A stretch of 64,000 nt of DNA, taken from positions 32,001 through 96,000 of IMG/VR virus record IMGVR_UViG_3300013099_000018; one strand, given 5' to 3'. Positions 26,500-64,000 of this stretch are shown here, one piece after another (position 1 is the first letter of the stretch; every line of letters begins with the position of its first letter). The position numbers and the translations under genes were made by a program. The notes beneath the pieces are model-generated. The model was given only the letters and a program-made list of their open reading frames with translations, was not told where the DNA came from and made no database searches. The stretch is from a virus.

Positions 26500-26520
26500 T
26501 CTGTGTCTTAGATGTCGTTT

Positions 26521-26640: not shown

Positions 26641-26680
26641 TTCCACAAATAAAGCATTTGTACTTTTTCATGATATTAAG

Positions 26681-31652: not shown

Positions 31653-31683
31653 CGTATCACCACTCCAATGATTTCATCTAAAA

Positions 31684-41780: not shown

Positions 41781-42101
41781 TTAGTAATATACTTTAACAT
41801 GCAACTCTAATGGGTATCTATTATCTACAACTTCAATTTCAAGTCTATAGTTCTTAAGATAGCCTTGAACATATTTCTTCGTTCTGTGTAAAATGTTTAT
41901 AGCGTATGCCTTACGGCTTTCTGCTTGTGCTAAGTCTGTTAAGAGGTTTTTTACGACTTTTTCAAGTTCTTCTTGCGAAAGGTGTGGTAATTCTTCTTTT
42001 ATTTTTCTTTTTATTTTGTCTTCAATTGTTTCTTGCTCTTTAATTTCTTCAATTTCTTCAGATACCTTAATGTAAGTAAGGTCTTCTTTACTCAATCTCA
42101 T
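41781..42101 (-). CDS. Hypothetical protein
   Basis: Leaderless ORF after TATA box. Confidence 0.6.
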   Translation of the reverse strand: MRLSKEDLTYIKVSEEIEEIKEQETIEDKIKRKIKEELPHLSQEELEKVVKNLLTDLAQAESRKAYAINILHRTKKYVQGYLKNYRLEIEVVDNRYPLELHVKVYY

Positions 42102-42252: not shown

Positions 42253-42621
42253 ATGCCATATAGGGACTTTACGGACAGGGTAGAGAACTATAACCTTGCA
42301 GTTATACCAGACGTAGTCAAGACCAAGTTCGAGACTAGAAAGAACAAGATGGTTCAGTTGCAACAGAGAGGACAGGCAACACTAACCGACATGGAAAAGA
42401 AGGTCAGAGACATCCTTGACGAGAACGGAATCTTCGGAAACTTCAGAATTCCTTACTTGAACTTGGCAAGAGCCTTATTCAGAGCAAAGGGACACCAGAG
42501 TGGTCTTGCTCTACAGAAGATTGCCAATGGTTGGAAGCAGAAGGCAGTTGCTGAAGGCTTAGACCCAGACATTGTTGACAAGATTATCGAAGTAGTCATT
42601 GGTGCAACAGCATACAGCTAA
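42253..42621 (+). CDS. SIRV2-fold (Adnaviria/Tokiviricetes) major capsid protein
   Basis: 122 aa; VRDILDENGIFGNFRIPYLNLARAL..GLDPDIVDKI parallels the SIRV2 MCP pattern V..VL..YGI.G..R..Y......ARAL..NP..LD; triple GAGGTGAG RBS, strong promoter and terminator. Confidence 0.8.
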   Translation: MPYRDFTDRVENYNLAVIPDVVKTKFETRKNKMVQLQQRGQATLTDMEKKVRDILDENGIFGNFRIPYLNLARALFRAKGHQSGLALQKIANGWKQKAVAEGLDPDIVDKIIEVVIGATAYS

Positions 42622-42728
42622 AGTCTAAATAATTCCACTTAATTACTCAAGATTTAATTTCTTTATTTTTTTAATTAAGCAATTTCTTTTAATCATAATA
42701 ACGCTTATTTATCTGTTTCAACATATGG

Positions 42729-43847
42729 TTGTTAATGGTGGGTAGGGTAGTATATATCTCACCTTTGCAAGCAGAATCAATGTTAAACCAAGCTAACTTA
42801 TTCAAAAAGCTATTGCAAGAATGCGGTTATGATGCAGTATTCAAATCTACTATTACAGTTGAAGATTTGAACAACGATGATATTGCTGGAGCTATATGGT
42901 TTCAATTAGCTACTATCAATTTCATAGGTGATGCTATAGTCCCATACATACTTGGCAAAAAACCTAAAGTACTATACGTTACAATCGAGGGAGTACCTAC
43001 AAGGGGAAATGTAGCACATTCAAATCTAAAAAGATGCGAATTCGTAGCTGTAAGCAACTTTGTTAAAGAATGCTTACAATCAGTAGGGTTGAAAGTTAGA
43101 AATGTAGTTCATCATGCCATCGACTGGAAACTCTGTGGTGAAATCCACAAGAAGAACATAATCCAAAGAAGGCAAATCCAACAATACGCAAAAGACAGAG
43201 TTAAGTTCATAGTAGTTGCGAGAGATGACCCTCGCAAAAACCTTAAAGGGTTAGCAGAAGCTATGAGAATTCTAAATAAGAAGGGTTACGAAAAGGACTA
43301 TGTAGTATTTTTAATCACCGAAGACTCTGCCAAACAGAAGTTTGAAGGTATAAATAATGCTGTGTTTATAAAAGGTTTTGGCGGTTCAGCACATGAATTC
43401 ATTTTAGGCTATATGGCTTGCTGTGATTTCCTCATTCATCCTGCATTCAGTGAAGGTTTTGGACTTCCAGTCCTTGAGGCAAATGCTGTGAGTAAACCAG
43501 TAATACACGTAGATGCTCCCCCAATGAATGAATTTACCTCACCAGATTTCAATTTCATGTTCAATTACATCGATAAGCAAGCAGTAAAATGTAACATGTA
43601 TCAATATTGGATATTTCATATCTTCACTCCAGACATGCTCGCCGAAATGATTGCTTACGCAATTGACATTTACAAAAACCACAAAGACGAATATCAAGAA
43701 TATTGTACAAAGGCAAGAGAGTGGACAAAGAACTGGGATTATCATGTTAAATATGCCGAACTAATGAGAGAACTTAAGTTGGCAATTCCAAGAGATTTAA
43801 TAGATTATGTAAAGCATGGTTTGGATTGGATAATCGAAATAAAGTGA
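42729..43847 (+). CDS. GT4 (GT-B) glycosyltransferase
   Basis: AVS.FV, RKNL, SEGFGLPVLEA. Confidence 0.9.
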   Translation: MLMVGRVVYISPLQAESMLNQANLFKKLLQECGYDAVFKSTITVEDLNNDDIAGAIWFQLATINFIGDAIVPYILGKKPKVLYVTIEGVPTRGNVAHSNLKRCEFVAVSNFVKECLQSVGLKVRNVVHHAIDWKLCGEIHKKNIIQRRQIQQYAKDRVKFIVVARDDPRKNLKGLAEAMRILNKKGYEKDYVVFLITEDSAKQKFEGINNAVFIKGFGGSAHEFILGYMACCDFLIHPAFSEGFGLPVLEANAVSKPVIHVDAPPMNEFTSPDFNFMFNYIDKQAVKCNMYQYWIFHIFTPDMLAEMIAYAIDIYKNHKDEYQEYCTKAREWTKNWDYHVKYAELMRELKLAIPRDLIDYVKHGLDWIIEIK

Positions 43848-43853
43848 TTTAAT

Positions 43854-45140
43854 ATGATTAGGAAAGACCCTTTTGAAAGCATAATTGACCGTAAAGAGAA
43901 ATACATTGATTTTACAACAAGCTTAGACTGGATAAGCTTAAACATGCTTAGATGGGAATTTAGACTACCGAAAATAGACTTATCTATTGGTTTCAACCTC
44001 AGTTTTAATTTCTTGCTTGATTTTTACTTAGCGGTAGATTTACATTTCCCTCTTGATGCTTTTGACTATCTCAAGTTAGATTTGGATTTAGCAATCGAGT
44101 TTAACCTTCCTAAATTTGAGATTGATTTAGCTATGCCTGATTTTTTAGTTGATTGGCAACCAATACCCAAAGCTTACTATGGTAAAACGAAATACAATCA
44201 AGGAGTTTATGACCCTCCAGAAATACTCTGGAAAGACCTTGCAAGGTTTATTTGGAACATGAGATATCAAACTACTGAGAAGAGCATTCCCGCTTATAAG
44301 AAAGTAAGCCAAGCACTAAAAAACTACTTAGAGGCTCACAAGGAAATTCTGTCAAAGAAAGGTGTAAGTAGTGGTTACATTGATGCAATGCTTGAAACAC
44401 TAATGAAAGTAGAAGGTAAAATATTGAATTGTTCTTATGTTGGATTCACAGTAGTAGGAGTTGCCAAAGTCATGAAACCAATCAAAAGAAGACGTTACAA
44501 GATGGCTTTAGGTAAAATGAGATATATAGATGACTTCAAGACAGAAAGAACAATCTACACCAAATTCCCTTATGAAACCCAAGTAAACTACGCAAGAGTG
44601 AATTATGCCAGAGTAATACCTAAAGAGAAGGAGTACAAGGAGAAGCATCTGAGACCTCTATCCAAAACACTCGCTTGGAAAGTTAAATTCTTCAAGCAAC
44701 GTTCATCAAAGACCCCAATTACAAAAGGTTTAGACGTAGAAGTAAGACCAGAGATAAGAGAAATTACGAAACACATTCCACCACCAAAGCATACACTATA
44801 CCAAAGAGTCTTCTTCTTGCAGAAGAGAGATAAGATGAAATGGGAAGGTGGCAAACATCAAGCAAGGTTACAGAATATTATTGAGCATGTTAAACCTATC
44901 CTCAACAAATATGGTGTTCATGGTAATTTCAGATTAGGGTATATAGCATTTGCAAAGGAATACGTTTATATGCATTATAAGCCTCATAAAAAACACAAAC
45001 AATGGAAAAGACTTCTAACGGATGACGATTTAATTCTAAAATACAAAAGAATGGGTTGTGATGAACAAATACTCAGAGAAATAATATCTACTGTAAATAA
45101 ATTCAAGACAGTAGTAGATATTGAAGCATCTCAAAAGTAA
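43854..45140 (+). CDS. Minor structural protein with C-terminal MCP-like domain
   Basis: VKPILNKYGVHGNFRLGYIAFAKE...GCDEQILREII aligns with MCP 42253-42621. Confidence 0.65.
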   Translation: MIRKDPFESIIDRKEKYIDFTTSLDWISLNMLRWEFRLPKIDLSIGFNLSFNFLLDFYLAVDLHFPLDAFDYLKLDLDLAIEFNLPKFEIDLAMPDFLVDWQPIPKAYYGKTKYNQGVYDPPEILWKDLARFIWNMRYQTTEKSIPAYKKVSQALKNYLEAHKEILSKKGVSSGYIDAMLETLMKVEGKILNCSYVGFTVVGVAKVMKPIKRRRYKMALGKMRYIDDFKTERTIYTKFPYETQVNYARVNYARVIPKEKEYKEKHLRPLSKTLAWKVKFFKQRSSKTPITKGLDVEVRPEIREITKHIPPPKHTLYQRVFFLQKRDKMKWEGGKHQARLQNIIEHVKPILNKYGVHGNFRLGYIAFAKEYVYMHYKPHKKHKQWKRLLTDDDLILKYKRMGCDEQILREIISTVNKFKTVVDIEASQK

Positions 45141-45178
45141 GAACAACGTTTTTATAGCATTTGCATATATTGTAAAAC

Positions 45179-45475
45179 ATGGCAGAGGCTAAAGATGTTG
45201 TGGCTAAGGAGGCATCGGATATGGGTGTAGGTGGCGACATGACAACTCCTCAAGCAAGTGTACCACCGCAAGTTTCAGAAGAATTCCTAAAACTACAATC
45301 AGACCTTATAAACATAAACGCTAAGTTAGTGTTTGCAGTGGCGACATGTGAATGTGAAAAAAGAGATGAATGTGAAATATTCCAGCATGCAAGAGAAGTA
45401 GCAAAAATCCTCAAAAAGATGCAAGATGTAGTTACTTCAACTTCTAAGAAGGTAGGTAAAAGAGGTAGAAGGTGA
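45179..45475 (+). CDS. Hypothetical protein
   Basis: Helical with CxC....C; basic tail. Confidence 0.6.
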   Translation: MAEAKDVVAKEASDMGVGGDMTTPQASVPPQVSEEFLKLQSDLININAKLVFAVATCECEKRDECEIFQHAREVAKILKKMQDVVTSTSKKVGKRGRR

Positions 45476-45658
45476 GGAATAACTATCTTATATTTTTAAC
45501 ACTATTTATTGGACATGGTATCGAAGGGTTTTAAGATAAGTGAGGGCGAATTCACTCTTGAAGTTACAAACATTGAAAACATAACAAACGATATACAATG
45601 TGTAGAATACGTAGTCAAAAGAGGGGATTCTGAGCTTACAGATGGATTTGTTTACCTA

Positions 45659-47002
45659 GTCAGCTACCCCGCCCTAAAGGGCGGAGCTTGCTCGACCTCT
45701 CCTAACGGAGAGGGAGCATCGGGACGGCTGACAAACGCCCCGTTTTGAAGAGATTTCAAAACCCTTAACATAATATTTTTAGCACCGACAATATCTGCAT
45801 GTTCTTTGAATCCACAATTCTTACATTCGAATTCTTTACCATTTCTATTTTCTTTAGCAGTGTAACCGCATACTGGACAACTTATTGATGTGCATTGCGG
45901 ATTCACATAAACTACCTTACTTCCGTAGAGCTTAGCTTTGTACTCGATTAGGGTTTGAAGCTCTCTGAAACACCACTGGCTAAACAACCTTCTTTTCTCT
46001 CCCTTGAACTTAGCGTTGTTTTCTCTGAATTCTCTAATGCCTTCTAAGTCCTCCAAACCGAAAACACAAGGTGAGTTCTCTACTACAATCTTCTTAGCAA
46101 CGACATGGAGGAAATTTCTAACCAGCCGTTTCTCGACTCCGCTAAGAGACAACAAACGCCTCTTAGCGGAGCGAGTGCCTTTAGCCTGAAGCTGTGAGCG
46201 TAACTTCTGATAATGGGATTTCAATCTCAAAACTTGTTGAGAGAATTCGATAAGCTTAGATTTGCCTAAACTATCATGCAAAGCTACAAAACTATTGGAA
46301 GGTTCGTTTATATCAACTCCGACAACCTTCTTAGGCTTGAGTTCCTTATCAGGAACATCTACAGATACAATAAGATACCAGAGCTTGTTACTCCTCTCGT
46401 AATAAAGAATGGCATCTCCGTAACCGTATTTCTCAATATATTCGTAGTGTTTGTTCCAACCATAGTAAGGTATTTTCTTCAATCTTTCACCGATAACCGA
46501 GATTGAACAAACTCTTGGATTTAGCTTTAAATCATAGCTCCTTCTTTTAACGAGCTTAACAATCAGTTTTTTCCTTCTAATTGGTTTTCCAATCTCTTTA
46601 TAGAATAGTTCGATTAACTTCTTACGATTTCTCTTCGAGATATTAAATTTCTCAGCTAACTGGTTAAAGACAGAATCGTAATGTTGAGCAACCTCTCTGA
46701 TAACTGAAATAGCAATCTGAGACTGAAAACCATACTTCTCTTTGAGTTTGTAGTATAAAGCCTTATGCAAACTAATATGGTCAAAAACACGATTGTTAAA
46801 AGCGTATTCGCTAATTTCGTTAAATGCATCTCTATACTTTTTGGCTAAATCCAAAATCTTCTGCTTTTGCTCCTTCGTAAGTTCAAGCTTAAATTTCACA
46901 GATATTGTAACCATTCATTGAGTTGTGAAAAATTTAGATATTTAAGTGTTGCGGTACTCCTCTCCGCTTTGAAAAGCGAAATTTCCGCACCGCTATTATT
47001 TT
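45659..47002 (-). mobile_element. Non-autonomous IS200/IS605-family (IS1341-like, TnpB-only) element
   Basis: Right end CAAGCTCCGCCCTTTAGGGCGGGGTAGCTGAC, left-end hairpin TTTCGCTTTTCAAAGCGGAG, TTCAT 5' of left end, no target duplication, no tnpA. Confidence 0.82.
45664..46914 (-). CDS. tnpB: TnpB RNA-guided endonuclease
   Basis: RuvC D (VGVD), E (LEDL), D (HADIVGAKNI); CPVCG/CKNCG Zn ribbon. Confidence 0.95.
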   Translation of the reverse strand: MVTISVKFKLELTKEQKQKILDLAKKYRDAFNEISEYAFNNRVFDHISLHKALYYKLKEKYGFQSQIAISVIREVAQHYDSVFNQLAEKFNISKRNRKKLIELFYKEIGKPIRRKKLIVKLVKRRSYDLKLNPRVCSISVIGERLKKIPYYGWNKHYEYIEKYGYGDAILYYERSNKLWYLIVSVDVPDKELKPKKVVGVDINEPSNSFVALHDSLGKSKLIEFSQQVLRLKSHYQKLRSQLQAKGTRSAKRRLLSLSGVEKRLVRNFLHVVAKKIVVENSPCVFGLEDLEGIREFRENNAKFKGEKRRLFSQWCFRELQTLIEYKAKLYGSKVVYVNPQCTSISCPVCGYTAKENRNGKEFECKNCGFKEHADIVGAKNIMLRVLKSLQNGAFVSRPDAPSPLGEVEQAPPFRAG

Positions 47003-47128
47003 ATGAAGAATCAAGACCATGCATCAGTTCTTAAAAAAGTGCTAACCAAAATAGTTACAGTAGTAAAAAAGGTTTCTTAACTCTTTCACCAACACAATTC
47101 TTTTATTTTTTTATGTTTAATTGAATAT

Positions 47129-47512
47129 ATGGTTAAGATTAAGGGTGGAGATGAGCTTTATTTAGATGTTTACTATGTGAAAGAATACCAACTCAAAGAA
47201 GTAGTTGGTAAAGATGGTATAGTAAACAAATACTACTCGGTAGATGCAAAGTTACTTCTTAACCCAGATAAAAAATACCTAAACAGAGAAAATGTCGAAG
47301 TAGTCTCGCACAAGGTTATAAAAGTGCAAATAATGGAAGTAAACAGAGTAGGTGGAGAAGTTATTGAACCTAGTTATCTTATAGGCTTACGCTTTGTAGA
47401 AGGTAATAAAGCTACTCCAGTATTCCATATCATGGTTAAAAACGATGAAGAATTCAAACAGAGAATAGTCCAAGAGTTAAGATATTATTTTAAAGCGACA
47501 AGTATATCATAA
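47129..47512 (+). CDS. Hypothetical protein in structural module
   Basis: 127-aa beta-rich ORF. Confidence 0.65.
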   Translation: MVKIKGGDELYLDVYYVKEYQLKEVVGKDGIVNKYYSVDAKLLLNPDKKYLNRENVEVVSHKVIKVQIMEVNRVGGEVIEPSYLIGLRFVEGNKATPVFHIMVKNDEEFKQRIVQELRYYFKATSIS

Positions 47513-47531
47513 ATACTAGAGGTGATAGTTA

Positions 47532-50500
47532 ATGGCAACTGAGGTTGAGGAATTTAACATCAATCCACAAATAATCATTCAAGCATTCGATATTGAAAAA
47601 ACTTTAGAAGAGTTTAGCCTAAGCGATATCGAAGAGTTTTACATTGAATACGGTGGTGTAACCGACCCATTAGGACAACTAGCATCGACAGTGCTAAATG
47701 CTATTGATAGGGGGTTGTCATCTGTAAAGAATGCTATATTGGGTAAAATCTCTGATGTATATAATACAGTCAGTAAACTACCTGGTAGAATAAGTGATGT
47801 TCTTTCAAAATTGGGTAATATAGGAGATGTTATTAATGATATATTAAATACAGTTAAAGGAATTCCAGGCAGAATAAGCGATGTTTTAAATAAAATTGGT
47901 AGTGTTGGTAGTGTTGTAAATTCTATTTTTGAAAGGGTTAAAGAACTTCCAGGCAAGGTGGGTGAAATATTAAGTAAATTAGGTAATATAGGTTCTACGG
48001 TTAAAGACATATTTGATAAGATTAAGGGTATTTATCAAAAAATAGCTGATGGATTTAAGAATGCATTAGACAAAATACGAGATATTTACGATAAGATTAA
48101 AGAAATACCTCAAAAAATAGCTGATGGGTTTAAAGATGTCTTGAAGAATTTAGGCACTATTGTAGACAAAGTCAAAGAAATTCCACAAAAGATAGCTAAA
48201 GGGTTTGAAGATGTTGGAAAATCTCTTAACAACATATTCGAGAAGGTAAAAGAGCTACCAGAGAAAGTCTCTCAAGGATTTGAAGAGGTTTTAAAGAACT
48301 TAGGACTTATTGTAGACAAAGTCAAAGATTTACCTCAAAAGATATCCGATGGATTTAGAAACATATTAGATAAGGTTCGTGAAATCTTCGACAAAGTCAA
48401 AGAGTTACCACAGAAAATATCAGATGGTTTCAAAAACGTTATCGAGAATTTAAGAGGGATAATGGATAAAGTCAAGGAGTTACCACAGAAAATAGCTGAA
48501 GGTTTTGAAAATGTAGGTAAATCCCTTAGCGGAATAATCGAGGAAGTCAAAAAGATTCCAGAAAAGATTTCAAGTTTATTTGAAGAAATTAGGAAAAAGT
48601 TTGAAGATTTTGGAAAAACTATTGGAGATATTTTCGAAGAGGTTAGAAAAATCCCTGAAAAGATAGCAAAGGGATTTGAAAATGCCAGTAAAACAATAAA
48701 TAAGGTAATCGAGGAAGTCAAAAAGATTCCAGAGAAGATAAGTGAAGGATTTGGAGATATAATTGAAAAACTTAAAATATTACCAGAATTGCCACAAAAA
48801 GTATGGCAATTCATACAACAAAACATCGTTCAACCCCTTGAAGAACATGTCGTAAAGCCTATAAAAGCCTTCTTTGAAGACTTATGGGATAAACACATTA
48901 AACCATTCTTTGACAAATTAAGGGATATACCAACAAAAATGGCGGAAATCAGCAAAGCATTTCAGGGATTCGTCAACCCATTAGTAGGTATAGCACAATT
49001 CTTTGACCAAATTAGGCAGAAATTCATCGATTTCATAACTAATATTCCAAATTACATTAAGTCGATAGCAGATTTCTTTGGCAATATAGCTAAAGACCCG
49101 TTGGGTTGGTTCAACGATAATGTAGTAAAGCCTTTAGCAGATGCTTTCAGTGCAATAGGTAAGTGGATATGGGAACACTTACCAGATTGGCTCAAGAATG
49201 CAATAACCACAGTACAAGATTGGTTCTCTGGAGCTAAGGATTGGATAACAAAAGGATGGAGAGACTTTGTCGATTGGGTTAGTAAGATACCAGAGCATAT
49301 CCAAAACTTAGGAAACTATATCTATGATAACGCAATTAAACCATTGCAAAATTGGTTAGATGAACAAATAATATCGCCATTTAGCGAATATATTGTTAAA
49401 CCTCTTGGAGATATAGGAGCTAAAGTTTGGCAAACTCTTAGCTCAGCATTTGATAGAATTAGAAATGCTATAAGTGAATTCTTAAAAGACCCAATAGGTT
49501 TCATCGGTGGGATATTTAATTTCTTGATTAGTGGATTAAAGAAAATTGGAGAAGCTATATGGGGCGGAATTACATCTGCTGGAGAGTGGTTCGCAAGTAA
49601 AGCTACTGAAGCATTCAACGCAATCTTTTCAAAAGTTATCAAACCTATATATGATAGTTTTGAAAACATAGGTAAATCTATAGTTAGTTTCATAAACAAA
49701 CCATTCATATCTTTGGTTGGAGCAGTTAAAGGTTTAGCAGATAAAATTGCTAAAGCTACAGATGAACCTATAACCAAGCTTATTTATGACCTTTTCACAC
49801 CACTGGTTAGCAATGTTGCAAAAACTATGGAAAATCATGTTATGAAATTAGTTAATAAGCTTAGTAAAGGTCAATCTGCGGGTGAGGTTATAGAATCACT
49901 ACAGCTTACTGGATTGCTTTATGGTTCGATAGTTCTCAATCAGTATTTGTTTAGAGCAATATCGTTAGGGTTACATGCTTTAGCTTCAGCTTTTGACAAA
50001 TACAATTGGGAAATGTTTATTGGATGGAGAGTAAAGGTAAAGGGAGAGCATGGATTCAGATTCGTTCCAGCAGGTGTTGGTGTTAGGCAAGCTATAGGAG
50101 ATTCTACGTTAGTTCAACAAGCAATTCCAATTTACGTTGGATTAAACTTAGGTGGAACTTTGAGACACATTGCAAAAGAAATGAAAAACTATGCAGATGA
50201 GTGGGGTAGAGCAGTTCTATATGGTTATGCAATTTGGCTATCACAACCCATGATGCGTTTGGCAAGTTCAATGTTTAGAAATATGTTACCTATTGAACTA
50301 CCGTCATTATCCGAGCTTAGAACTATAACAAGGAGACACATGCCAATCAAAGAGAAATTCGAACAACACCTAGAAACTATGAGAAGGTATCTTGCGTTAT
50401 ATGGTTACAACGATGAAGTCGTGGCATGGTTGACAACTCCAATAACAGAGAAAGGTTGGTTTGTTACAATTGTAGATAGGTTTGGCAAGGAAAGAAAAGT

Positions 50501-53570: not shown

Positions 53571-53576
53571 GGGTGA

Positions 53577-54467
53577 ATGGCTATGCCGTATCTTGATGAG
53601 TTGAGAGAGAGTTTGAAGTTGGAAGCTGGAGACGTAATAATGGAAGATTGGTATGAAGATTTAGTAAACTATCTTGAAAAAATAGAGAAAGAAGGTGCTG
53701 TAGATTACGTAGGTTACATCCATTCACATTTAATTCCCGATAAAGATGCCTTATACAACGTTGGAGTACACAACTCCAAACTTAAGCAAGTTCACTCCGT
53801 TTACGGATATTTCTCCAACGTTAAAGCAGATACAATGAATGCAACTAATGTACAATCTGACGATATAACTACTAACGAGATAAACGCAAATAAAGGCAAT
53901 TTCACAGAAGACTTGAGGTTACAAGGTAAAAGAGTTCTGAAAGACGAAGACCCAATACACATAGCTTCATTCTATGAGTATGCTAAGTCTCAAGTTGAGC
54001 AAGCTATTAAGGATGCACTTCTGAACTTAAGCATTCCAACAAAGATTGAAGAAAAGAAGGTTGTTGATGTTTATTCATTCTATGACTATGCTAAGAATCA
54101 AATAGAGCAAACAATCAAAGATGTACTTCTGAACTTAGGAATACCACCTAGACCTCATCTACTTGGTTATCAAGTAGATTACTATGCACCAGCAATGGCA
54201 GATATATTCCCGCAAGATTTGAACGTTCAATTCGATGGTAGAGTTAGAATTAAGGTTGTTGGAAATGTGGATTTCTACGCTTACATGAAGTTCAAGCCAA
54301 ATGTAGCTCCGATTGAAATAGTAGCATGGCTTAACGATGGTAAACCAATCAAAGCCAATACATGGAAAGAAATGGATTTCACCGTAAACAAAGACGATAA
54401 GGTGAATGTAAAAGTAGTCCCAACTACGAAGATAACAATCTTGATTTACAACATACCTCAAGCTTGA
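53577..54467 (+). CDS. Putative virion/fibre protein with internal repeat
   Basis: SFY(E/D)YAK.Q.EQ.IKD.LLNL.IP twice; LIPD.D..YN.G fibre-like motif. Confidence 0.55.
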   Translation: MAMPYLDELRESLKLEAGDVIMEDWYEDLVNYLEKIEKEGAVDYVGYIHSHLIPDKDALYNVGVHNSKLKQVHSVYGYFSNVKADTMNATNVQSDDITTNEINANKGNFTEDLRLQGKRVLKDEDPIHIASFYEYAKSQVEQAIKDALLNLSIPTKIEEKKVVDVYSFYDYAKNQIEQTIKDVLLNLGIPPRPHLLGYQVDYYAPAMADIFPQDLNVQFDGRVRIKVVGNVDFYAYMKFKPNVAPIEIVAWLNDGKPIKANTWKEMDFTVNKDDKVNVKVVPTTKITILIYNIPQA

Positions 54468-54507
54468 TGCTTAACTTTTTAATATACATTTGATTTGAAA
54501 TAAGAAT

Positions 54508-57500
54508 ATGAAAACAATCTATTACTTATATCCAATACGCAACAAGGTTAGCTTTACCTTTATATCTAAGCAACACATTAGGTATCTAAAGCAAAAGTTA
54601 AAGAACAATGTAAAAATAATAGAAACAGATGTAGACACTTTTGACCCTTCTGCATGGGGGTTTAACCGTAAACTTATACTCCATCCACTCTTTTATCCAT
54701 TCTTCGAAGGAGTAAGTAAAGAAGCTAATGCCAAAATAAGTAAACTTAACCAATGCCTCAACAAAGGTTTCAAGATTATAGCTTTCGATACGGCAGATTC
54801 TGACAGAATTTCCGAAAAAGCAGTAGATTTAGCTAATAAAGTTGAAGCAATAATAGTTCCATCTAACTTTGCCAAGAAAGCATTTGTAGATAGTGGCGTA
54901 TATAAACCAGTTCACGTAGTACCTCATGGAATTCCAGATGAGTTTATGGTTAATGGTAAAACAATAACTCATCCAGATTTGGCTAAGCTCAAAGAATTCA
55001 AGGAGAAAAACAAATTCATACTTGTTCATTTCAATGTTACACATTGCTATGATGAAGAAACGAGAATCCTCACTAAGGAAGGTTTCAAAAAATGGAATGA
55101 GATATCCAAAGATGACGAAATTGCCACTTTCAACCTAAAGACTGGTGAATTAGAGTATCAGAAACCAGAAGAGATATTTATATACGAATATAAAGGTAAG
55201 ATGATTCATTTCAAAGGACAACACTATGACCTCTTAGTTACTCCAAACCACAGAATGGTAGTTAGAAAGTCAAGACGGTATGTAGCTCCACAAAACAGAA
55301 ATAAGGTTAGAGAATGGAAAATTAAAGAAGCATTCGAATTACTAATCAATCGCAATTGGGTTAAATATGAAATTCCAAGAGTGGTTAAATGGAAAGGTGT
55401 TCACAAAGAATATTTCGAGATTGATAAGAAATTGAACGAGAAACTACATTGCAATGTTAGATATAAGCATGATAAATTGCCTATAAAACCATTTCTAAGG
55501 TTCTTGGGATGGTTCATATCGGAAGGACAAGCAAGATACAATGAACATAACCATGAAGTTTTTATAGCGATTTGGAACAACAAGGGTGAATACTTGAAAG
55601 AAATAGCAGAAACTATAAAGGAGTTGGGCTATCATCCAGTTATAGATTACAATAAGAAATGCGTAATAGTTAGTTCAGTTCAACTATACGAAATCATCAA
55701 AGCACTTAGATTACCAGTTCACCCAGAGGTTAAAGGTAAGAAAGCTCATCTAAAGTTTGTTCCAGATTTCATAAAGGAACTTTCTCCAGAGCTTATAAAA
55801 GAGTTTCTTATGGCACTATGGAAAGGAGATGGAACTTTCTATAAAACAAAGGATGGAAAAACCATACCATTGAAATATTCTACAACAAGTAAAAAGCTTG
55901 CAGAGGATATAGCTGAACTATGCTTGAAATGTGGATATGCTGTGAGTATAAATGTTGATGATTGTGTAAAAAGACTTAATAAAGGGCATCATCCACTATA
56001 TAATGTCGTAGTTTCGGTTAGATATGCTAATCCAAGTATGAATAACAAACCAGAAGTCATAGATTACGAAGGAATAGTTTGGTGTGTCAAAGTTCCAAAT
56101 GGGGCGGTTATAGTTGAGAGAAATGGCAAAATCGTAGTTTCTGGAAACTCAGGATTCCGTAAGGGTTGCGATTTATTCGCAAAAGCTATGTCTATCGTTC
56201 AAAAGGAGAATCCAAATATCATAATTTTGGCAAAGAGGCTTGAAGGATTAGACCCATACTTACCTCTATTAAGACAATTGAAATGCGTAGAGGTTGGCGG
56301 TTATCTTGAATTGGATGCTTATAGGCGACTTTATGACTTGACTGACATTACAGTTCTTGCATCACGAGGGGGAGGGTTTGAGTGCGTTCCACCAGATACA
56401 AAGATAATATGCTACGATGGAGTCAAGCCAATCTCAGAAGTGAAAGAGGGAGATTTAGTTCTAACACATAAGGGAAGGTTTAGAAAGGTTACAAGAGTGT
56501 TTAAGAGACATTACAAAGGTAAGATTATAGAGATAATACCTTATGGTTTCTCTAAAGTTAGCATCAAATTAACACCAGAGCATCCAGTTTTAGCTATAAT
56601 TAGGAAAGGCAATGCAAGGAACTCAATTAACTCTAACTTAGAATGGGTAGAAGCTAAGGAGTTGAAAAAAGGAGATTTTGTCGTATTTCCAATACCATCA
56701 AACAATTGTGAGAATATAGTCTATGATTTAGCAGAATTCTCTAATGATGGTAGTTTAGTAGTTGAGGATGAGTGGATATACTACAATAGGACAGGTTCTC
56801 CGAGATTTACAGAAATCAGCTACAAAGATATAGAAAAGCTAACTAATGAAACAAAGAAAATAGTTTGTAAAGCTGTTAAAGCTTACAAAGGTGAATTGAA
56901 TACGAATTCTGATAGGGTAAAGAAAGTTGTAGAGTTTCTAAGAAAGATAAACTATGAACCTCAATATGTAAAAATAAAGAGATTCGTTAAATTTGATAAA
57001 TACTTGGCAAAGGTTATAGGATATTACTTAGCAGAAGGGAGTATTTCAGCAAAAGGACGTGCAGTGGAGTTCAGTTTTGGTGAAGAACCAGAACTTGTAT
57101 TAGATTTAGTAAATGCAATAATACATGCTTTCAATTATATACCATCGGTAAAGCAATACTCTGATAGCAAAGTAACAAAAGTAATCATTTCAAATAAAGT
57201 TATTGCCAAATTCTTGGAAACATTATGTGGCAAAAAAGCTCATGGTAAAAGAATTCCATTAGATTGTTACAGGTTGGATTTAGACACAATATCATGGCTA
57301 GTATGGTCAATGATACTTGGAGATGGATGCGTTAAAGATAATCTCATAAGATATGCTACGGTTTGCGATAATCTTGCTTTTGGAATCTACACATTGTTAG
57401 TTAAACTTGGATATAAACCAAGAATCGAATGTCTTGTCCAAAGAACATATATTAGACCAAGCCATAAATTCGCTGAGAGTAAAATATGGGAAATTGAAGT

Positions 57501-58056
57501 AACATTACCTAACAAAACCAATGGTAAAAACCCATCTAATAATCCATTAATACCAAGAAAAGAGGATTACATTTTACATAGCAATAAGAGGTATCTTGAT
57601 TTCAAGAGGGGGTTTATGATTTCAATAATCAGAGATATGAAAATCGTAGATTACGATGGCTATGTTTATAACCTTGAAGTCGAAGAAGACAATAGCTATG
57701 TTGCTAATTTAGTAACAGTTCACAATTGTAACGCATTAGAATCATTGGCGAGAGGAGTACCAACAATAGTTCCAAAAGCTGGTTGTTTCTTAGATTACAT
57801 TAAATACGCTATACCAGTCAAAGTTACGAAAAACAAACCAATAGTTCTACCAGATAACCCTATCCACGTAGGAAAGGGGTGGGAAATCGATGTTGATGAG
57901 CTTGCAAAGACAATTCTTAAAGTTGCAGATAACTTGAGCAAATACAAAAGAACTGCAAAAAGGAACATGAAAAAGATTTGGAAAGAATACAGTTGGAGAA
58001 GAATTGTAGATAAAATTATCAAAATATTAGTTGAATACGATTTCATTAAAGTTTAG
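54508..58056 (+). CDS. GT4 glycosyltransferase containing two inteins (mature ~366 aa)
   Basis: Extein VPSNF, VVPHG, H|SGFRKG, SRGGGFE|CNALES; two Hint/LAGLIDADG insertions. Confidence 0.9.
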   Translation: MKTIYYLYPIRNKVSFTFISKQHIRYLKQKLKNNVKIIETDVDTFDPSAWGFNRKLILHPLFYPFFEGVSKEANAKISKLNQCLNKGFKIIAFDTADSDRISEKAVDLANKVEAIIVPSNFAKKAFVDSGVYKPVHVVPHGIPDEFMVNGKTITHPDLAKLKEFKEKNKFILVHFNVTHCYDEETRILTKEGFKKWNEISKDDEIATFNLKTGELEYQKPEEIFIYEYKGKMIHFKGQHYDLLVTPNHRMVVRKSRRYVAPQNRNKVREWKIKEAFELLINRNWVKYEIPRVVKWKGVHKEYFEIDKKLNEKLHCNVRYKHDKLPIKPFLRFLGWFISEGQARYNEHNHEVFIAIWNNKGEYLKEIAETIKELGYHPVIDYNKKCVIVSSVQLYEIIKALRLPVHPEVKGKKAHLKFVPDFIKELSPELIKEFLMALWKGDGTFYKTKDGKTIPLKYSTTSKKLAEDIAELCLKCGYAVSINVDDCVKRLNKGHHPLYNVVVSVRYANPSMNNKPEVIDYEGIVWCVKVPNGAVIVERNGKIVVSGNSGFRKGCDLFAKAMSIVQKENPNIIILAKRLEGLDPYLPLLRQLKCVEVGGYLELDAYRRLYDLTDITVLASRGGGFECVPPDTKIICYDGVKPISEVKEGDLVLTHKGRFRKVTRVFKRHYKGKIIEIIPYGFSKVSIKLTPEHPVLAIIRKGNARNSINSNLEWVEAKELKKGDFVVFPIPSNNCENIVYDLAEFSNDGSLVVEDEWIYYNRTGSPRFTEISYKDIEKLTNETKKIVCKAVKAYKGELNTNSDRVKKVVEFLRKINYEPQYVKIKRFVKFDKYLAKVIGYYLAEGSISAKGRAVEFSFGEEPELVLDLVNAIIHAFNYIPSVKQYSDSKVTKVIISNKVIAKFLETLCGKKAHGKRIPLDCYRLDLDTISWLVWSMILGDGCVKDNLIRYATVCDNLAFGIYTLLVKLGYKPRIECLVQRTYIRPSHKFAESKIWEIEVTLPNKTNGKNPSNNPLIPRKEDYILHSNKRYLDFKRGFMISIIRDMKIVDYDGYVYNLEVEEDNSYVANLVTVHNCNALESLARGVPTIVPKAGCFLDYIKYAIPVKVTKNKPIVLPDNPIHVGKGWEIDVDELAKTILKVADNLSKYKRTAKRNMKKIWKEYSWRRIVDKIIKILVEYDFIKV
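55045..56148 (+). mobile_element. Intein 1 (368 aa) with LAGLIDADG endonuclease
   Basis: Starts CYDEETRILT, TPNH block B, FLGWFISEG/LWKGDG, ends SGN before Ser+1. Confidence 0.9.
56383..57726 (+). mobile_element. Intein 2 (448 aa) with LAGLIDADG endonuclease
   Basis: Starts CVPPDTKI, TPEH, IGYYLAEG/ILGDG, VYNLEV, ends VHN before Cys+1. Confidence 0.92.
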
Positions 58057-58061
58057 TAGAG

Positions 58062-58964
58062 GTGTTGGTTATGGGTGAGATTGTCGAACATCTTGATTTG
58101 AAATATTATGTCGATGAAAACTATCCAGCATCAAGAGAGCCTATTAGAGAAAATGAGTCACATGTTCTTGGATTCTGTATAATAATAGCAGATAGAAATA
58201 AAGTATTCGTAGATGTAGGAGCTTGTACTGGTAAATACTCCATACCCATGAGCAAACACTATGGTATGGTTATAGCAATAGAACCCAACCCTAAAAACAT
58301 CGAATTCTTAAGGAAAAACATAGAACTTAACAAATGTGATAATATTGTAATAATAGATAAAGCAGTATCAAACACTAAAGGTAAAACTAAATTAGCTTTA
58401 AAAGGTTCTCAAAGCTTTATAGAAGCTTACAATGTGAAAGATTCAATAGAAGTTGAAACAGATACCTTAGACAACTTAATCGAAAAAGCAGATGTGATAA
58501 AGATTGATGTTGAAGGTGCTGAACTAAAAGTCATAGAAGGTTCTGAAAGGATAATTGACGAGCATAAACCTATCTTTGTAGTAGAGCATAACGAATACTG
58601 GAGCGGTGATAAACCCAAAACCCATCTGGACATAATGAAAAAGCTCATAGCTAAAGGCTATTATCCATTCAACTACAACTATGTTCATTGGATTTATGTT
58701 CCGAAAGAAAAAATATCCAACTTTGCAGGACAACTTTCTGAATACGCTCAGGGAAGGTTGTTATCCCATCATATCTTCTACGAAATTATTATTAAGAATA
58801 TCAAAGAAGGTAAACCTTGGTATTACGGGTTGCCTAACACATGGTGGCATGGTGTGAGTATTTTAGAATTTGTCTCGGTGTTAGTTCATAAAGCTCCTTA
58901 TGAAAAGGAGTGGTTAGACCTTTACAAGAAGACAATATTTAACAACTATGGTTTTAAAATTTGA
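58062..58964 (+). CDS. FkbM-family SAM-dependent methyltransferase
   Basis: VDVGACTG.YS, IEPNP.N, DTLD, IKIDVEGAE. Confidence 0.9.
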   Translation: MLVMGEIVEHLDLKYYVDENYPASREPIRENESHVLGFCIIIADRNKVFVDVGACTGKYSIPMSKHYGMVIAIEPNPKNIEFLRKNIELNKCDNIVIIDKAVSNTKGKTKLALKGSQSFIEAYNVKDSIEVETDTLDNLIEKADVIKIDVEGAELKVIEGSERIIDEHKPIFVVEHNEYWSGDKPKTHLDIMKKLIAKGYYPFNYNYVHWIYVPKEKISNFAGQLSEYAQGRLLSHHIFYEIIIKNIKEGKPWYYGLPNTWWHGVSILEFVSVLVHKAPYEKEWLDLYKKTIFNNYGFKI

Positions 58965-58979
58965 TACAGAGGTGGTATC

Positions 58980-59813
58980 GTGATAGTCGGTATAATAAAC
59001 GGATATTATAGGAGTGGTACAACATTCATGCAACGATTATGCTCTAAAAGCAATCCTAATTTCATAGTCTTAAGTGAGCCAACACAGCATGAAATCATTG
59101 ACCACATAATGGCTAACGGTTGCAACAACACGAACCTACTACACGGATGGGAAATCTTCAAAGACTACTGTAAATTACCACGTAAAGTTAGGCATGAATT
59201 CATAAGAAGACATTTTACAGTATTCGATGAAAACGAAAACCAGTGGGGTATTATGACATCAGAAGGAGCTATAAGGTATCTACTTCAACCTCTACACGAT
59301 TATAACCAACCAGTAGTAATCAAATCAACACAACTACACTTACACCTAGAGAAAGTAAAGAAATGGTATGATTGTTGGGTGCTACACTTAGATAGATGTA
59401 TAGAAAACATTATTGCAGACCATTTCACTTATTATGCTTTAGTAAACTCTACTAAAGCTAAAGAACTTCTCACAAGCAACAATAAACCATTGCCTTTCTA
59501 TGCTGATTTAGTATTCAAGAACCTTGTAGAATACTATGGTTTAGACGAAAGCATAGCAAGGAACAACCTTGACAAACTTGTATTCAACATACTTACCGTT
59601 AAAAAAGCAATAGAACGACAGAAAGGTATAACTGTAATAGACTTTGACAAATTCATTTCAAATCCAAAACAGTATTTAAACAAGCTACCTTTCAAGATAA
59701 ATGAAAGTCTGTTAAAGCTTATAGATTCGTCAAAGAAGAATCCAGTTCCAGATTGGCTTAAAAGTATGATAAAAGATTCTATAAACTATTTAAATAATGT
59801 TTTGAGGTGGTAA
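58980..59813 (+). CDS. PAPS-dependent sulfotransferase-family protein
   Basis: 5'-PSB-like GYYRSGTTFM, EP, IK, 3'-PB-like LHLDR. Confidence 0.72.
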   Translation: MIVGIINGYYRSGTTFMQRLCSKSNPNFIVLSEPTQHEIIDHIMANGCNNTNLLHGWEIFKDYCKLPRKVRHEFIRRHFTVFDENENQWGIMTSEGAIRYLLQPLHDYNQPVVIKSTQLHLHLEKVKKWYDCWVLHLDRCIENIIADHFTYYALVNSTKAKELLTSNNKPLPFYADLVFKNLVEYYGLDESIARNNLDKLVFNILTVKKAIERQKGITVIDFDKFISNPKQYLNKLPFKINESLLKLIDSSKKNPVPDWLKSMIKDSINYLNNVLRW

Positions 59814-59814
59814 C

Positions 59815-60018
59815 ATGGATTACACCTTAACACTCTCAATAGAAATATTAGGGTTAGGTATAGCAATAGCTTCAGCAACTCTAAAATTTTATACAACTAC
59901 TTTAAAGAAATTACAGAACCACGATGATAGGCTTGGTTTCATAGAGTTTAGATTAGATAGGATTGAGAGAAAGCTCGATGAGTTAAACGGTAGAATGCGA
60001 GTTAATAAACCATCGTAA
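59815..60018 (+). CDS. Small TM plus coiled-coil protein
   Basis: N-terminal hydrophobic helix then RLDRIERKLD. Confidence 0.55.
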   Translation: MDYTLTLSIEILGLGIAIASATLKFYTTTLKKLQNHDDRLGFIEFRLDRIERKLDELNGRMRVNKPS

Positions 60019-60024
60019 AATATC

Positions 60025-61371: not shown

Positions 61372-61409
61372 GGAAATCTTTTATTAAGATTTAAGGTATA
61401 AATATCTAC

Positions 61410-62111
61410 ATGGTTAAAGATAAGTTGGTTATTAGAAGAGAGGAAGTAAACTTAGAAAGAGATACAACTACAGAAAAATTGGACTCTGGAGCTAATTTAG
61501 ACCTCTTCTATGAACTTGAAGTAAGGGATAAGAACGGAAAATTAATATCGAAGAGAACTGGTAGAAGCAAGTCTCTTGTGAGGAATTTCGCATTGATGCT
61601 AAGAGGATTAATGGCTGGAAACATAGCAGGTGTCGTTTCTGGCTCTACTTGGAACACTAAAGTAACGGTAACCGCTACGGATGGCACGACATTTGATTAT
61701 CCAAACTTACCGAGCTACTCAGAGGCTGAAAACGCTCCATCAGCAATGGAAGCATCAGCACTTGAAAGGGTGGATGAATATGGTGTTGTAGTCGGAACAG
61801 GCTCAACAGCAGTAACGAGAGACGATTACAAGTTAGAATCACAAGTTCCAGACGGATTCGCAGATGGTCAAATGGTTTACGGTAAAACTACAGTTGAAGA
61901 CGTGAACGGAGACCCACCAAGCTCGGTCTTCAGAATAATAAGAACATTCACCAACGAAGGCTCTTCGACAATATCGATTTACGAAATAGGTTTAATCGTA
62001 AAAGCTCAAGACAAATACGTATTGATAGCAAGAGATGTTTTAGACACAGCACAAGATGTCCCAGCAGGAGCAACCCTAACAGTAAGATATATCTTCAAAG
62101 TAACAGCATAA
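61410..62111 (+). CDS. Putative virion structural protein (fibre-base/collar-like)
   Basis: GTGST....DY.L, EIGL, ARDV, LTVRY pattern. Confidence 0.55.
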   Translation: MVKDKLVIRREEVNLERDTTTEKLDSGANLDLFYELEVRDKNGKLISKRTGRSKSLVRNFALMLRGLMAGNIAGVVSGSTWNTKVTVTATDGTTFDYPNLPSYSEAENAPSAMEASALERVDEYGVVVGTGSTAVTRDDYKLESQVPDGFADGQMVYGKTTVEDVNGDPPSSVFRIIRTFTNEGSSTISIYEIGLIVKAQDKYVLIARDVLDTAQDVPAGATLTVRYIFKVTA

Positions 62112-62129
62112 TGTCTTCTTTAATTTCTC

Positions 62130-64000
62130 ATGCCTATAACTGCAGAAATTCAAAGTTATGATGTAGCTACTTTACTTGATAGAGCTACTGATAGAGGTAT
62201 TCATCTAAAAGACCAAGCCAAAGGAACAGATAGGTTAATAGAAAGACATCTTGAAAATGTAGAAAATGTCATCAATATTCTAATACAGAGGACAAAAGAG
62301 TTTAGATACGTAGGTTTTGGCGATTTTGTAAGAGTTAAAGACCAAAACCTTATTGTAGATACTCTTAAACTTCTTGATACTGTTTTACAAGTTTATTATC
62401 CTTGTTCTAAATACTCTGAAATTGTACGCAAAATCAGATATGTAACTAAAGATGACTTTATCTTACCAGATGACCATAATTTAGTTGTAGATGCGATTAA
62501 AAGCGTAAGAGATTGCTTAGCACAAGTAGTACCACAATGGGACTTAGTATCATTAGACATGTATATAGGAATGTTAAATTACGTCAAAGAAGAAGACCCT
62601 GTCTTATCTTTTCAATACAATGCGAAAATAGATGCACTTAAGAATATTCTAAAGTTCATATTCAAATACGTATTTGTAACTACAGAACAAATAGTAGAAC
62701 TATTTACAGAATATGGTATATCTCTGAGAGTATTAAATATAGAAATTGAACCTTTTATAGAATTCTCAACGACAACTGAAATCTTAGAATCACTAATCGA
62801 AGCTACAATTTCTTATAACTTAACTACGATTTCACTGGATTTATCAAGTATAATAGATAGTTTAGGCGAAGCAACAACTAAAACCATTGATAGTTTAGAC
62901 TTGGTAGAAAGCATTGGAGAATTAACCACAGCAATAACCGAAGGATTGGCAGAAATACAAGGAATTGGTGAAGTTACCATTGAAGTTGTTGAAGGTTTAG
63001 CTCCGATAGAATCATCATATGATTTTCCAGAGATAATAGATTTCTTACCAGAAATAATAGCATCATACGATTTCCCATCAATCATTACTAAGCAATTATC
63101 AATCTTAACAGAATACGATTTTCCACCTATCACCACAGAACAACTACAAATGCTAACAGAATACGATTTCCCTTCTTACATCACCGAGCAACTACAACCT
63201 CAAACCGAATACAGCTACACAATAGAATTCATTGAGAAAGAGATTCATCCAGAGGCTATATGTGAAATAGTATATCCCATTATTATCGAAAAAAGTATAG
63301 AGCTATTTTCTGAACATGCAGAAACAATAGAAACGGTAGATAAGGAACTTGAGATTGTAATTCCATTTGACCTACCACCAACGATAAGCGGTTACACCGA
63401 ACTATTACTATCATACGATTTCCCATCTTACATTACTGAACAACTCCAAATGCTAACAGAATATGACTTTCCTTCGATTTACGATTCAACCGCATTATTA
63501 GCTACAACATACGATTTTCCATCTGTTTACGATTTGGAACAACCCATAACAGCAATTGAAGAACTGACAACGACAACATACGATTTAACCATTCAAGCCT
63601 TGCTTGAAATATACTCAACGCTAGAGAGCTACGATTTAGAAACGGTTACACAACTTCTGATAGACAAAACCTTAGATAGCTATGACTTGAAAACTATAAC
63701 TCAACTAATCCTCGACAAATACCTCGAATCGTTAGACTTGGAGATTCTCGGTGCTGAAACAGTCATCGAGAAAACCTTAGAAAGCTACGATAAACCACTC
63801 GACTTATCATTGTCGATAGATAGAACTACCAAATCTCTCGATGAAACATCGACAGTTCAAACCTCTTACGAGTTTGAAATGATATATTGGTTACGTGGTT
63901 ACAAATACCGTAGAGCTATAACCATAACCAACAACGCTCAAGAAGTAAACGATTACCAAGTCTTAATAGTTCTAACTCCACAAAACTTCGACTATTCTAA
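62130..64000 (+). CDS. Large acidic repeat protein (fibre/adhesin), 3'-truncated by window; not in ORF track
   Basis: Open from MPITAEIQ to window end; ~16-aa YDFP/YDL repeats; ends WLRGYKYRRAITI...DYQVLI..NFDYS (DUF2341-like start). Confidence 0.75.
   Translation, partial: MPITAEIQSYDVATLLDRATDRGIHLKDQAKGTDRLIERHLENVENVINILIQRTKEFRYVGFGDFVRVKDQNLIVDTLKLLDTVLQVYYPCSKYSEIVRKIRYVTKDDFILPDDHNLVVDAIKSVRDCLAQVVPQWDLVSLDMYIGMLNYVKEEDPVLSFQYNAKIDALKNILKFIFKYVFVTTEQIVELFTEYGISLRVLNIEIEPFIEFSTTTEILESLIEATISYNLTTISLDLSSIIDSLGEATTKTIDSLDLVESIGELTTAITEGLAEIQGIGEVTIEVVEGLAPIESSYDFPEIIDFLPEIIASYDFPSIITKQLSILTEYDFPPITTEQLQMLTEYDFPSYITEQLQPQTEYSYTIEFIEKEIHPEAICEIVYPIIIEKSIELFSEHAETIETVDKELEIVIPFDLPPTISGYTELLLSYDFPSYITEQLQMLTEYDFPSIYDSTALLATTYDFPSVYDLEQPITAIEELTTTTYDLTIQALLEIYSTLESYDLETVTQLLIDKTLDSYDLKTITQLILDKYLESLDLEILGAETVIEKTLESYDKPLDLSLSIDRTTKSLDETSTVQTSYEFEMIYWLRGYKYRRAITITNNAQEVNDYQVLIVLTPQNFDYS

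Follow-up and report, generated by a model that had tools for sequence, protein, structure and literature searches.

Adnaviruses are, to our knowledge, the only viruses that package A-form DNA, and structural knowledge of them comes nearly all from viruses of Sulfolobales. The genome range given for the realm Adnaviria by ICTV, the international virus taxonomy committee, is 17.6–41.5 kb. In the family Ahmunviridae (order Maximonvirales), whose exemplar is Methanophagales virus PBV300 (OP413840/NC_074636; 41,525 bp, linear, with terminal inverted repeats), the published layout comprises a first major capsid protein (MCP-1), a glycosyltransferase (GT), a minor protein with an MCP domain, a giant COG5412-like or tape-measure-like protein, and a second GT, together with MCP-2, Hjc, Cas4, and DUF2341 genes (PMC9894754; supplement of PMC12934983; PMC13700489). 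The conserved block consists of MCP-1 (122 aa), the GT, and the COG5412 protein, and MCP-2, the second GT, Hjc, DUF2341, and Cas4 vary in position; the published MCP lengths are 122 and 131 aa. PBV300 is linked to ANME-1, and two ahmunvirus genomes are linked by CRISPR spacers to Thermococcales (2026 preprint PMC12934983). Here we describe a related virus from a 64,000-nt stretch of DNA, positions 32,001 to 96,000 of IMG/VR record IMGVR_UViG_3300013099_000018 (hereafter the window), which a first-pass annotation made from the letters alone had read as a large, divergent, rudivirus-like member of Tokiviricetes.

The best explanation is that the genome of an uncultured filamentous archaeal virus from deep-sea vents was assembled as a fold-back, of which the window holds one and a half arms and most of the genome. 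The virus belongs to Adnaviria, class Tokiviricetes, and has rudivirus-like hallmark genes; its genome, 52.1 kb or more in length, is probably linear double-stranded DNA. We consider it likely that it represents a new genus or sister family in a vent clade with the Ahmunviridae gene layout, a placement made from published descriptions and not from alignment. The virus genome itself is real and well supported, and it belongs to a kind already described in 2023.

The core of the structural block contains the following genes.

42253–42621 (+): MCP-1, a major capsid protein of the SIRV2 fold, 122 aa (Pfam, profile, and structural matches)
42729–43847 (+): GT4 glycosyltransferase 1 (GT1), counterpart of SIRV2 ORF335; GT1/GT4 family match, in 50 of 51 related loci
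43854–45140 (+): candidate minor structural protein, 428 aa, helical towards its N-terminus and with an MCP-fold domain in the C-terminal part (about residues 320–416)
47532–53570 (+): giant minor structural protein, 2,012 aa, tape-measure/COG5412-like, in 23 related loci; positional and weak sequence counterpart of SIRV2 P1070
54508–58056 (+): GT4 glycosyltransferase 2 (GT2), counterpart of SIRV2 ORF356, with two inteins

MCP-1 matched PF12193 (Sulf_coat_C) with 34.9 bits (cut-off 25.2), and a profile of its clade, comprising 42 metagenomic homologue clusters, matched SIRV2 ORF134 (E 4e-9) and SBFV2 ORF135 (E 1e-10). Its AlphaFold2 (AF2) model, with a predicted local distance difference test score of 80.5, found its best PDB matches in 3J9X of SIRV2 (TM 0.70), 6WQ0, 3FBZ, and 3F2E, and by virus the best matches were capsid proteins of SIRV2, SSRV1, AFV1, and SFV1. 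The α-helical SIRV2-fold MCP that defines Adnaviria and Tokiviricetes is therefore present. Its similarity to the SIRV2 MCP is detectable by profile and fold only, with 23% identity in the Foldseek alignment; SBFV2, the best named virus in the collection of phages and archaeal viruses searched, reached 27%. The first-pass annotation had placed a SIRV2-type MCP at this gene and had made its reading depend on that fold and on the lack of high identity to any described virus, and both expectations are borne out by the SIRV2-like model and by a best identity of 27% among the named viruses searched.

The MCP that had been called single proved to be one of four MCP-fold paralogues in an MCP profile search; another forms the C-terminal part of the 428-aa protein, and the remaining two are encoded by a tandem pair of MCP-2 genes. 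The MCP-2 pair lies just beyond the window, where the N-termini of L003:8508–9164 and L003:9169–9750 carry the MCP fold. The products of the pair (193 and 218 aa) are 37% identical to each other, and as MCP-2a and MCP-2b they are 24–30% identical to MCP-1; their C-terminal extensions are β-rich; one related contig encodes a 133-aa MCP-2, and in the present genome MCP-2 is duplicated and extended. The 428-aa protein, which has 37 homologue clusters, was matched by the MCP hidden Markov model (E 2e-8), and hhalign of A1 against A2 gave a probability of 97%. The SFV1 MCP was matched in a PDB profile search with this protein, and the best folds for its AF2 model were the AFV1, SSRV1, and SIRV2 MCPs; its family profile did not match SIRV2 ORF488. 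A tree of the MCPs resolved three paralogue groups and failed to place the Sulfolobales MCPs, the branches being very long. Because MCP-domain minor proteins and fusions of an MCP with a β-domain were reported in 2026 from ahmunviruses, chiyouviruses, and Asgard-linked adnaviruses, those of the present genome are not new in kind.

GT1 was 28% identical to SIRV2 ORF335, the GT beside the SIRV2 capsid gene (E 7e-27), in agreement with the earlier assignment of a GT4 gene following the MCP. The 2,012-aa protein matched PHROG tape-measure families with up to 131 bits and Pfam PhageMin_Tail weakly, and it showed weak, collinear matches to SIRV2 ORF1070 at the N-terminus (1e-6) and the C-terminus (4e-4). 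All three extein pieces of GT2 were matched by SIRV2 ORF356.

Related contigs, at least 51 in number and the longest of 39.5 kb, were present in JGI metagenomes; they span 34–52% GC, and the relatives bear labels of vent metagenome-assembled genomes (MAGs). Their common block runs in the order 106-aa gene, MCP-1, GT1, 428-aa gene, 98-aa gene, 127-aa gene, giant protein, 296-aa gene, and GT2, and MCP-2, Hjc, Cas4, and AcrIII-1 occur at variable positions. A scan of IMG/VR with the MCP alignment revealed no further relative, and no protein of a named ahmunvirus or other named virus was among the homologues in large protein searches. Judged by sequence comparison, the virus is far from every named virus searched, and it sits inside this clade of at least 51 metagenome contigs. 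Set against the Ahmunviridae description, it has two divergent MCPs (MCP-1 of 122 aa and the divergent MCP-2a and MCP-2b) and a block of MCP-1, GT, and COG5412-type giant protein at 42253–53570 that is kept in relatives. The ricin-type β-trefoil lectin of the Ahmunviridae core was not seen, with no ricin-family Pfam match in the scanned proteins and several small open reading frames (ORFs) lying outside that scan. The earlier description as a rudivirus-like Tokiviricetes virus larger than SIRV2 thus stands on the hallmark genes and on at least 52 kb of genome, but the claim of a new lineage in the strong sense does not, because the layout has been published for Ahmunviridae and at least 51 contigs share it.

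Three further hallmark genes lie to the left of this block.

38063–38716 (+): Cas4-like PD-(D/E)XK nuclease (PDDEXK_3, 30 bits, passing; Cas_Cas4, 22.1 bits, just under the cut-off of 22.7)
39496–39855 (+): AcrIII-1 (DUF1874/STIV B116-like) ring-nuclease homologue, 119 aa (PF08960, 82.9 bits)
39852–40232 (−): Hjc Holliday junction resolvase (PF01870, 40 bits, cut-off 21.1), kept in 16 related loci

The AcrIII-1 protein was 40–45% identical to its rudivirus and lipothrixvirus homologues, and its His51 and Glu92 aligned with the catalytic SIRV His47 and Glu88; by fold family and by these predicted catalytic residues, 39496–39855 has the defining features of a DUF1874 ring nuclease. The Cas4-like nuclease contains one N-terminal Cys, C-x2-C-x5-C, ELK, and QxxxY, that is, the pattern of four Fe–S cluster cysteines of Cas4 with RecB motifs, and it is 26% identical to SIRV2 ORF207. 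All three genes had been named in the first-pass annotation, and Pfam matches and residue motifs agree with it, the Cas_Cas4 score itself falling just under its cut-off. The expression signals it had listed, GGTGA ribosome-binding sites and archaeal promoters, were also recovered: GGTG-type sites precede 17 of 56 genes (30%) against a background of 5%, and TATA-like boxes lie at about −27 to −35 upstream of many other genes.

The window begins with a duplicated arm, and the genome proper is taken to start at its mirror axis.

1–20130: duplicated arm of the fold-back contig, mirror image of 20131–40260, adding no genome
20131–20940: gene-free terminal region beside the dyad ..TTACAC|GTGTAA.., with paired 40-nt repeats and a 14-bp array; presumed hairpin telomere and terminal repeat

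Positions 1–20130 are the exact reverse complement of 20131–40260, the arms being 100% complementary with a spacer of 0 nt; this is the hairpin-like end of the first-pass annotation. The symmetry extends to the whole record, whose 104,260 bp equal their own reverse complement with zero mismatches, a palindrome of 2 × 52,130 bp. The estimate of about 44 kb of unique sequence was right for the window (43,870 bp), whereas the record, being a palindrome, holds 52,130 bp of unique sequence (20131–64000 plus a further 8,260 bp in L003) and is incomplete. The far end of the 52,130-bp unit breaks off within an ORF, and the genome is therefore longer than 52.1 kb; an end-to-end comparison found no inverted repeat joining both ends of the unit. 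Because the record is doubled, its IMG/VR label of inverted terminal repeats and its CheckV completeness of 90% are artefacts and are not to be trusted. A genuine 104-kb genome with 52-kb repeats was considered and rejected, because zero mismatches over 52 kb and a gene-free dyad better suit a fold-back. At 52.1 kb or more, the genome exceeds every ICTV-listed adnavirus.

The roughly 800 bp at 20131–20940 are the only long gene-free stretch and are rich in direct and inverted repeats; the first ORF starts at 20941, and the genes neighbouring the dyad are all transcribed away from it. At 20719–20914, immediately inward of the presumed telomere and still upstream of the first gene, a 14-bp unit (consensus near AAATTTTGTGCATG) is repeated head to tail about 14 times. 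The only Rfam matches were two to miRNA families, both inside the array of this unit and judged spurious, and no tRNA genes were found in the sequence. The dyad, the repeats, and the Hjc gene together suit either a hairpin end that is covalently closed or a junction of head-to-head replication as in rudiviruses. Adnaviria typically have linear double-stranded DNA genomes with terminal inverted repeats and with ends that are covalently closed or protein-linked; here, one end is a perfect dyad beside repeats, and the other is absent from the record.

Evidence on the host comes mainly from a mobile element inserted in the structural block.

45659–47002 (−): IS200/IS605-type, TnpB-only insertion sequence, a 1,344-bp unit (tnpB 45664–46914; Cas12f1-like_TNB, 77 bits)

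The closest viral relative, L005, is contiguous over the insertion site (7221|7222), and this empty site delimits the unit; on this alignment the element inserted cleanly and recently. Its close relatives in a set of 185,579 species, one genome for each, occurred in two Archaeoglobus-like MAGs only, G001 and G002, at 91–92% aa identity. The copy on contig C12 of G002 was 87% identical in nucleotides over 1,356 nt and 91% identical in amino acids, and it is chromosomal, in a MAG resembling Archaeoglobus profundus; the G002 proteins cluster with A. profundus MAG proteins, and G006, a listed relative, is A. profundus DSM 5631. A second viral element at 26519–26603, the core of a GC-richer segment (26480–26680), resembles DNA 3' of Archaeoglobus tnpB genes at 81–95% identity; in G001, G002, G004, and G006, the matching DNA has the strand of tnpB and lies no more than about 100 nt downstream of that gene. 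It had no match to an Rfam family. This element looks like a TnpB omega-RNA or right-end scaffold, solitary and far from the viral tnpB, and it might borrow a host TnpB.

Two other similarities to Archaeoglobaceae DNA were observed. A 1.5-kb contig, C147, binned in the Archaeoglobaceae MAG G033, was 90–92% identical to 22908–24043, which covers a 124-aa gene and the first part of a GATase gene; this reflects either a piece of a sister virus that was put in the wrong bin or a gene held in common. The 109-aa gene at 31683–31893 had a homologue with 73% DNA identity in the Archaeoglobus-like MAG G004 (C31:85369–85577), on a contig of at least 89 kb.

From the TnpB evidence, Archaeoglobus appears slightly favoured as the host, and the rating goes no higher because no spacer match was found and the virus has a lower GC content than Archaeoglobus genomes. 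The first-pass annotation had allowed for a thermophilic host outside Sulfolobales, which fits the TnpB copies in Archaeoglobus genomes and the vent-MAG labels of the relatives; of the host checks it had suggested, TnpB best matches led to Archaeoglobus-like MAGs, whereas spacers gave no match in the Archaeoglobaceae searched.

Several observations weigh against the account given so far. The far end of the genome is absent, which leaves inverted terminal repeats and the true length unproven; Ahmunviridae membership was judged from published descriptions and not by alignment; and fold-back contigs may also arise as amplification or assembly chimeras. If the dyad at 20130/20131 were such a chimera, an inversion at an arbitrary internal point rather than a telomere, the virus might have other ends or a circular genome. 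Perfect palindromic contigs are a known artefact, the dyad is known from one contig, and the ends of the 52-kb unit have no linking inverted repeat; but the dyad falls in the sole long gene-free, repeat-filled stretch of about 800 bp, the neighbouring genes point away from it, and the virus encodes Hjc, while relatives in Rudiviridae have covalently closed ends (PMC12282232) and PBV300 is linear with terminal inverted repeats. We regard a chimera as quite improbable. Somewhat less remote, though still unlikely, is that the virus founds a new family-level Tokiviricetes lineage tied to Ahmunviridae by realm-wide hallmark genes only. The best identity of 27% to the named viruses searched, the lack of any named virus protein among the homologues, the very long branches of the Sulfolobales MCPs, and a genome of at least 52 kb that exceeds PBV300 (41.5 kb) would all suit such a founder. 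Gene order and protein lengths nevertheless fit the ahmunvirus description closely, MCP-1 having exactly 122 aa and the MCP-2 of one relative 133 aa, and MCP-domain fusions of the same form have been published for ahmunviruses.

The host is the part of the account most exposed to an alternative. Insertion sequences are able to move between hosts, and the same virus might infect Thermococcales, ANME-1, or a low-GC vent archaeon, having acquired the TnpB element by an unrelated route. Its GC content of 35% lies below the roughly 38–42.5% of the sampled Archaeoglobus regions, and the related contigs, at 34–52% GC, imply that the clade has several hosts. CRISPR spacer matches were absent from the Archaeoglobaceae genomes searched by DNA, where only matches to insertion-sequence ends and chance-level short matches appeared, with few candidates scored per genome in one scan. 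Published relatives are linked elsewhere: spacers tie two ahmunvirus genomes to Thermococcales, and for PBV300 the link is to ANME-1. Against this stand the recent, clean insertion of the TnpB element, whose close relatives among the 185,579 species genomes are in two Archaeoglobus-like MAGs only, the unlinked second element that matches tnpB flanks in four Archaeoglobus genomes, and the small contig binned with an Archaeoglobaceae MAG that is 90–92% identical to the viral left arm. Another host is thus a serious contender, but we rate it below Archaeoglobus.

The remaining genes to the right of the dyad with features of note are as follows.

40732–41169 (+): conserved 145-aa clade protein, in 21 related loci at 64–100% identity; no match in Pfam or PHROG
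41781–42101 (−): conserved 106-aa clade protein, in 20 related loci
45179–45475 (+): conserved 98-aa protein, in 22 related loci
47129–47512 (+): conserved 127-aa protein, in 7 related loci
53577–54467 (+): conserved 296-aa protein downstream of the giant gene, in 16 related loci; phrog_7221 (function unknown)
58062–58964 (+): FkbM-family methyltransferase (PF05050, 81 bits)
58980–59813 (+): weakly sulfotransferase-like protein (PF13469, 20.9 bits, under the cut-off of 27), with homologues in L036 and L042
60025–62111 (+): two genes of 448 and 233 aa, function unknown, without homologues in related loci
62130–64000, extending to 64298 (+): 722-aa protein with DUF2341 (ConA-like) as its final domain; putative adhesin or terminal protein

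The 296-aa protein was considered as a counterpart of SIRV2 ORF309 and rejected, as there was no match. The 722-aa protein matched PF10102 with 86.9 bits at residues 628–707 and the DUF2341 region of SIRV2 ORF564 weakly; on the A. profundus DSM 5631 chromosome (L063:4690–6276), a copy of the 26519-type element adjoins a gene with the same domain. These findings give substance to the elaborate fibre genes of the first-pass annotation, in that the 2,012-aa protein is tape-measure-like and weakly P1070-like and the 722-aa protein bears DUF2341, but the fibre label, though reasonable, is unproven. A crude hydrophobicity scan of 56 proteins found one hydrophobic segment only. In the left arm (20941–25667 and 34541–35182), a GATase gene and genes resembling a COOH-NH2 ligase and ThyA were observed, which hints at a role in nucleotide or DNA modification.

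The extra length of the genome lies mostly at 54.5–70.4 kb, a block of about 16 kb of which most has no counterpart in related contigs; it comprises GT2 with its two inteins, the FkbM methyltransferase, the sulfotransferase-like gene, the unknown genes, the DUF2341 protein, and two further intein carriers, a small protein and a third GT. Inteins were recognized by Hint splicing blocks that start with Cys, end in (H/G)N, and are followed by Cys or Ser at +1, and by a host protein uninterrupted in relatives. The GT2 inteins, at about residues 180–546 (with a LAGLIDADG domain) and 626–1073, have all of these, with Pfam matches to Intein_splicing, Hint_2, and LAGLIDADG_3 and the expected junction residues, and in related contigs GT2 is intein-free with the three extein pieces joined. 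The genome holds four inteins in all. The inteins and TnpB of the first-pass annotation are accordingly both present, the former as two in the GT at 54508–58056 and the latter at 45664–46914 (−). One related contig (L011:8583–9731) has an intein in GT1 and not in GT2, 30% identical to the second GT2 intein here; from such comparisons, inteins seem to move among the glycosyltransferase genes of the clade. Within the intein of the third GT, at L003:5181–5918 (67181–67918 on the window scale), the +1 frame holds a 245-aa ORF with helix-turn-helix and LAGLIDADG_1 domains (30 bits), apparently an overprinted gene for a free-standing homing endonuclease.

The gene content suggests how such a virus might work. 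By analogy with rudiviruses and other adnaviruses, the genome ends would be covalently closed hairpins, and replication would pass through head-to-head intermediates resolved by Hjc; the palindromic contig could stem from these intermediates or from read-through of the hairpin. MCP-1, dimerized with itself or with MCP-2, may wrap A-form DNA into a rod that is probably not enveloped, and the 428-aa MCP-domain, giant, 296-aa, and DUF2341 proteins may build host-binding terminal structures. The GT, methyltransferase, and sulfotransferase gene products would modify virion glycans, and AcrIII-1 would degrade cyclic tetra-adenylate and so blunt type III CRISPR signalling.

The noteworthy points are the genome size, the likely cultivable host, and a mislabelled palindromic record. 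A genome of at least 52 kb would predict an exceptionally long rod, and it stretches the realm's size range by a quarter. A host in Archaeoglobus, if true, would be cultivable (A. profundus) and give rare access to vent adnaviruses of this clade in the laboratory, opening the multi-paralogue capsid, the tape-measure-like terminal protein, and the inteins to study. Only tentatively do we join these strands into one picture, of an Adnaviria genome larger than any seen before, in a filamentous virus that would be the first with a tie to Archaeoglobi, standing as a new genus or family beside Ahmunviridae. In that picture, MCP-1 would form the body, two MCP-2 forms would carry β-rich surface domains, and the 428-aa protein would form the end cap, while the extra length would come from the intein-ridden block of about 16 kb with its glycan-modifying enzymes and adhesin-like proteins.

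Compared with the described groups, the "Samediviridae", filamentous viruses of Thermococcales (PMC12934983), are likewise vent adnaviruses with a SIRV2-fold MCP, some with a COG5412 protein, but their genomes are 12–22 kb and they carry replication genes of their own (MCM, PCNA, PriS, and SSB), whereas the scan of proteins from the present virus showed none of these. Chiyouviridae (PP467602) and the Asgard-linked Baiyanviruses, compared by description, are also adnaviruses known from metagenomes only, and they encode an MCP followed by a GT, together with a P1070-like giant protein and MCP-like fusions; their hosts are Bathyarchaeia and Asgard archaea, some from hot springs, and their genomes are 24–30 kb. 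Eight membrane proteins and mini-CRISPR arrays occur in Chiyouvirus.

With Rudiviridae (SIRV2, NC_004086, 35,450 bp), the virus shares a SIRV2-fold MCP beside a GT (GT1, similar to ORF335), a second GT (similar to ORF356), Hjc, a DUF1874/AcrIII-1 protein (similar to ORF114), a Cas4-like nuclease (ORF207), a giant terminal protein (weakly P1070-like), and a DUF2341 protein (ORF564); membrane proteins are few in both, and its end is presumably of the hairpin type as well. Only about five SIRV2 genes were detectable by tblastn, at 26–33% identity, which falls short of the relatedness within Rudiviridae, and no counterpart was found for the SIRV2 Rep ORF119, the P98 pyramid protein, or ORF488. Four MCP-fold paralogues replace the one homodimer-forming MCP of Rudiviridae, the genome is about 50% larger, and the host is probably outside Sulfolobales, Archaeoglobus being the lead.

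The closest fit is with Ahmunviridae (PBV300 and the two Thermococcales-linked genomes), which share the vent origin, the linear genome, and the block of a 122-aa MCP-1 with a GT and a COG5412/tape-measure-like giant protein. Also common to both are a divergent MCP-2, the second GT, Hjc, DUF2341, a Cas4-like nuclease, an MCP-domain minor protein, and fusions of an MCP with a β-domain. The present virus differs in its likely Archaeoglobus host and in that no ricin-type lectin was seen in the scanned proteins. It differs further, by description, in a genome of at least 52.1 kb as against 41.5 kb in PBV300, and in its duplicated and extended MCP-2 (193 and 218 aa), four inteins, and a block of about 16 kb that is mostly absent from its relatives.

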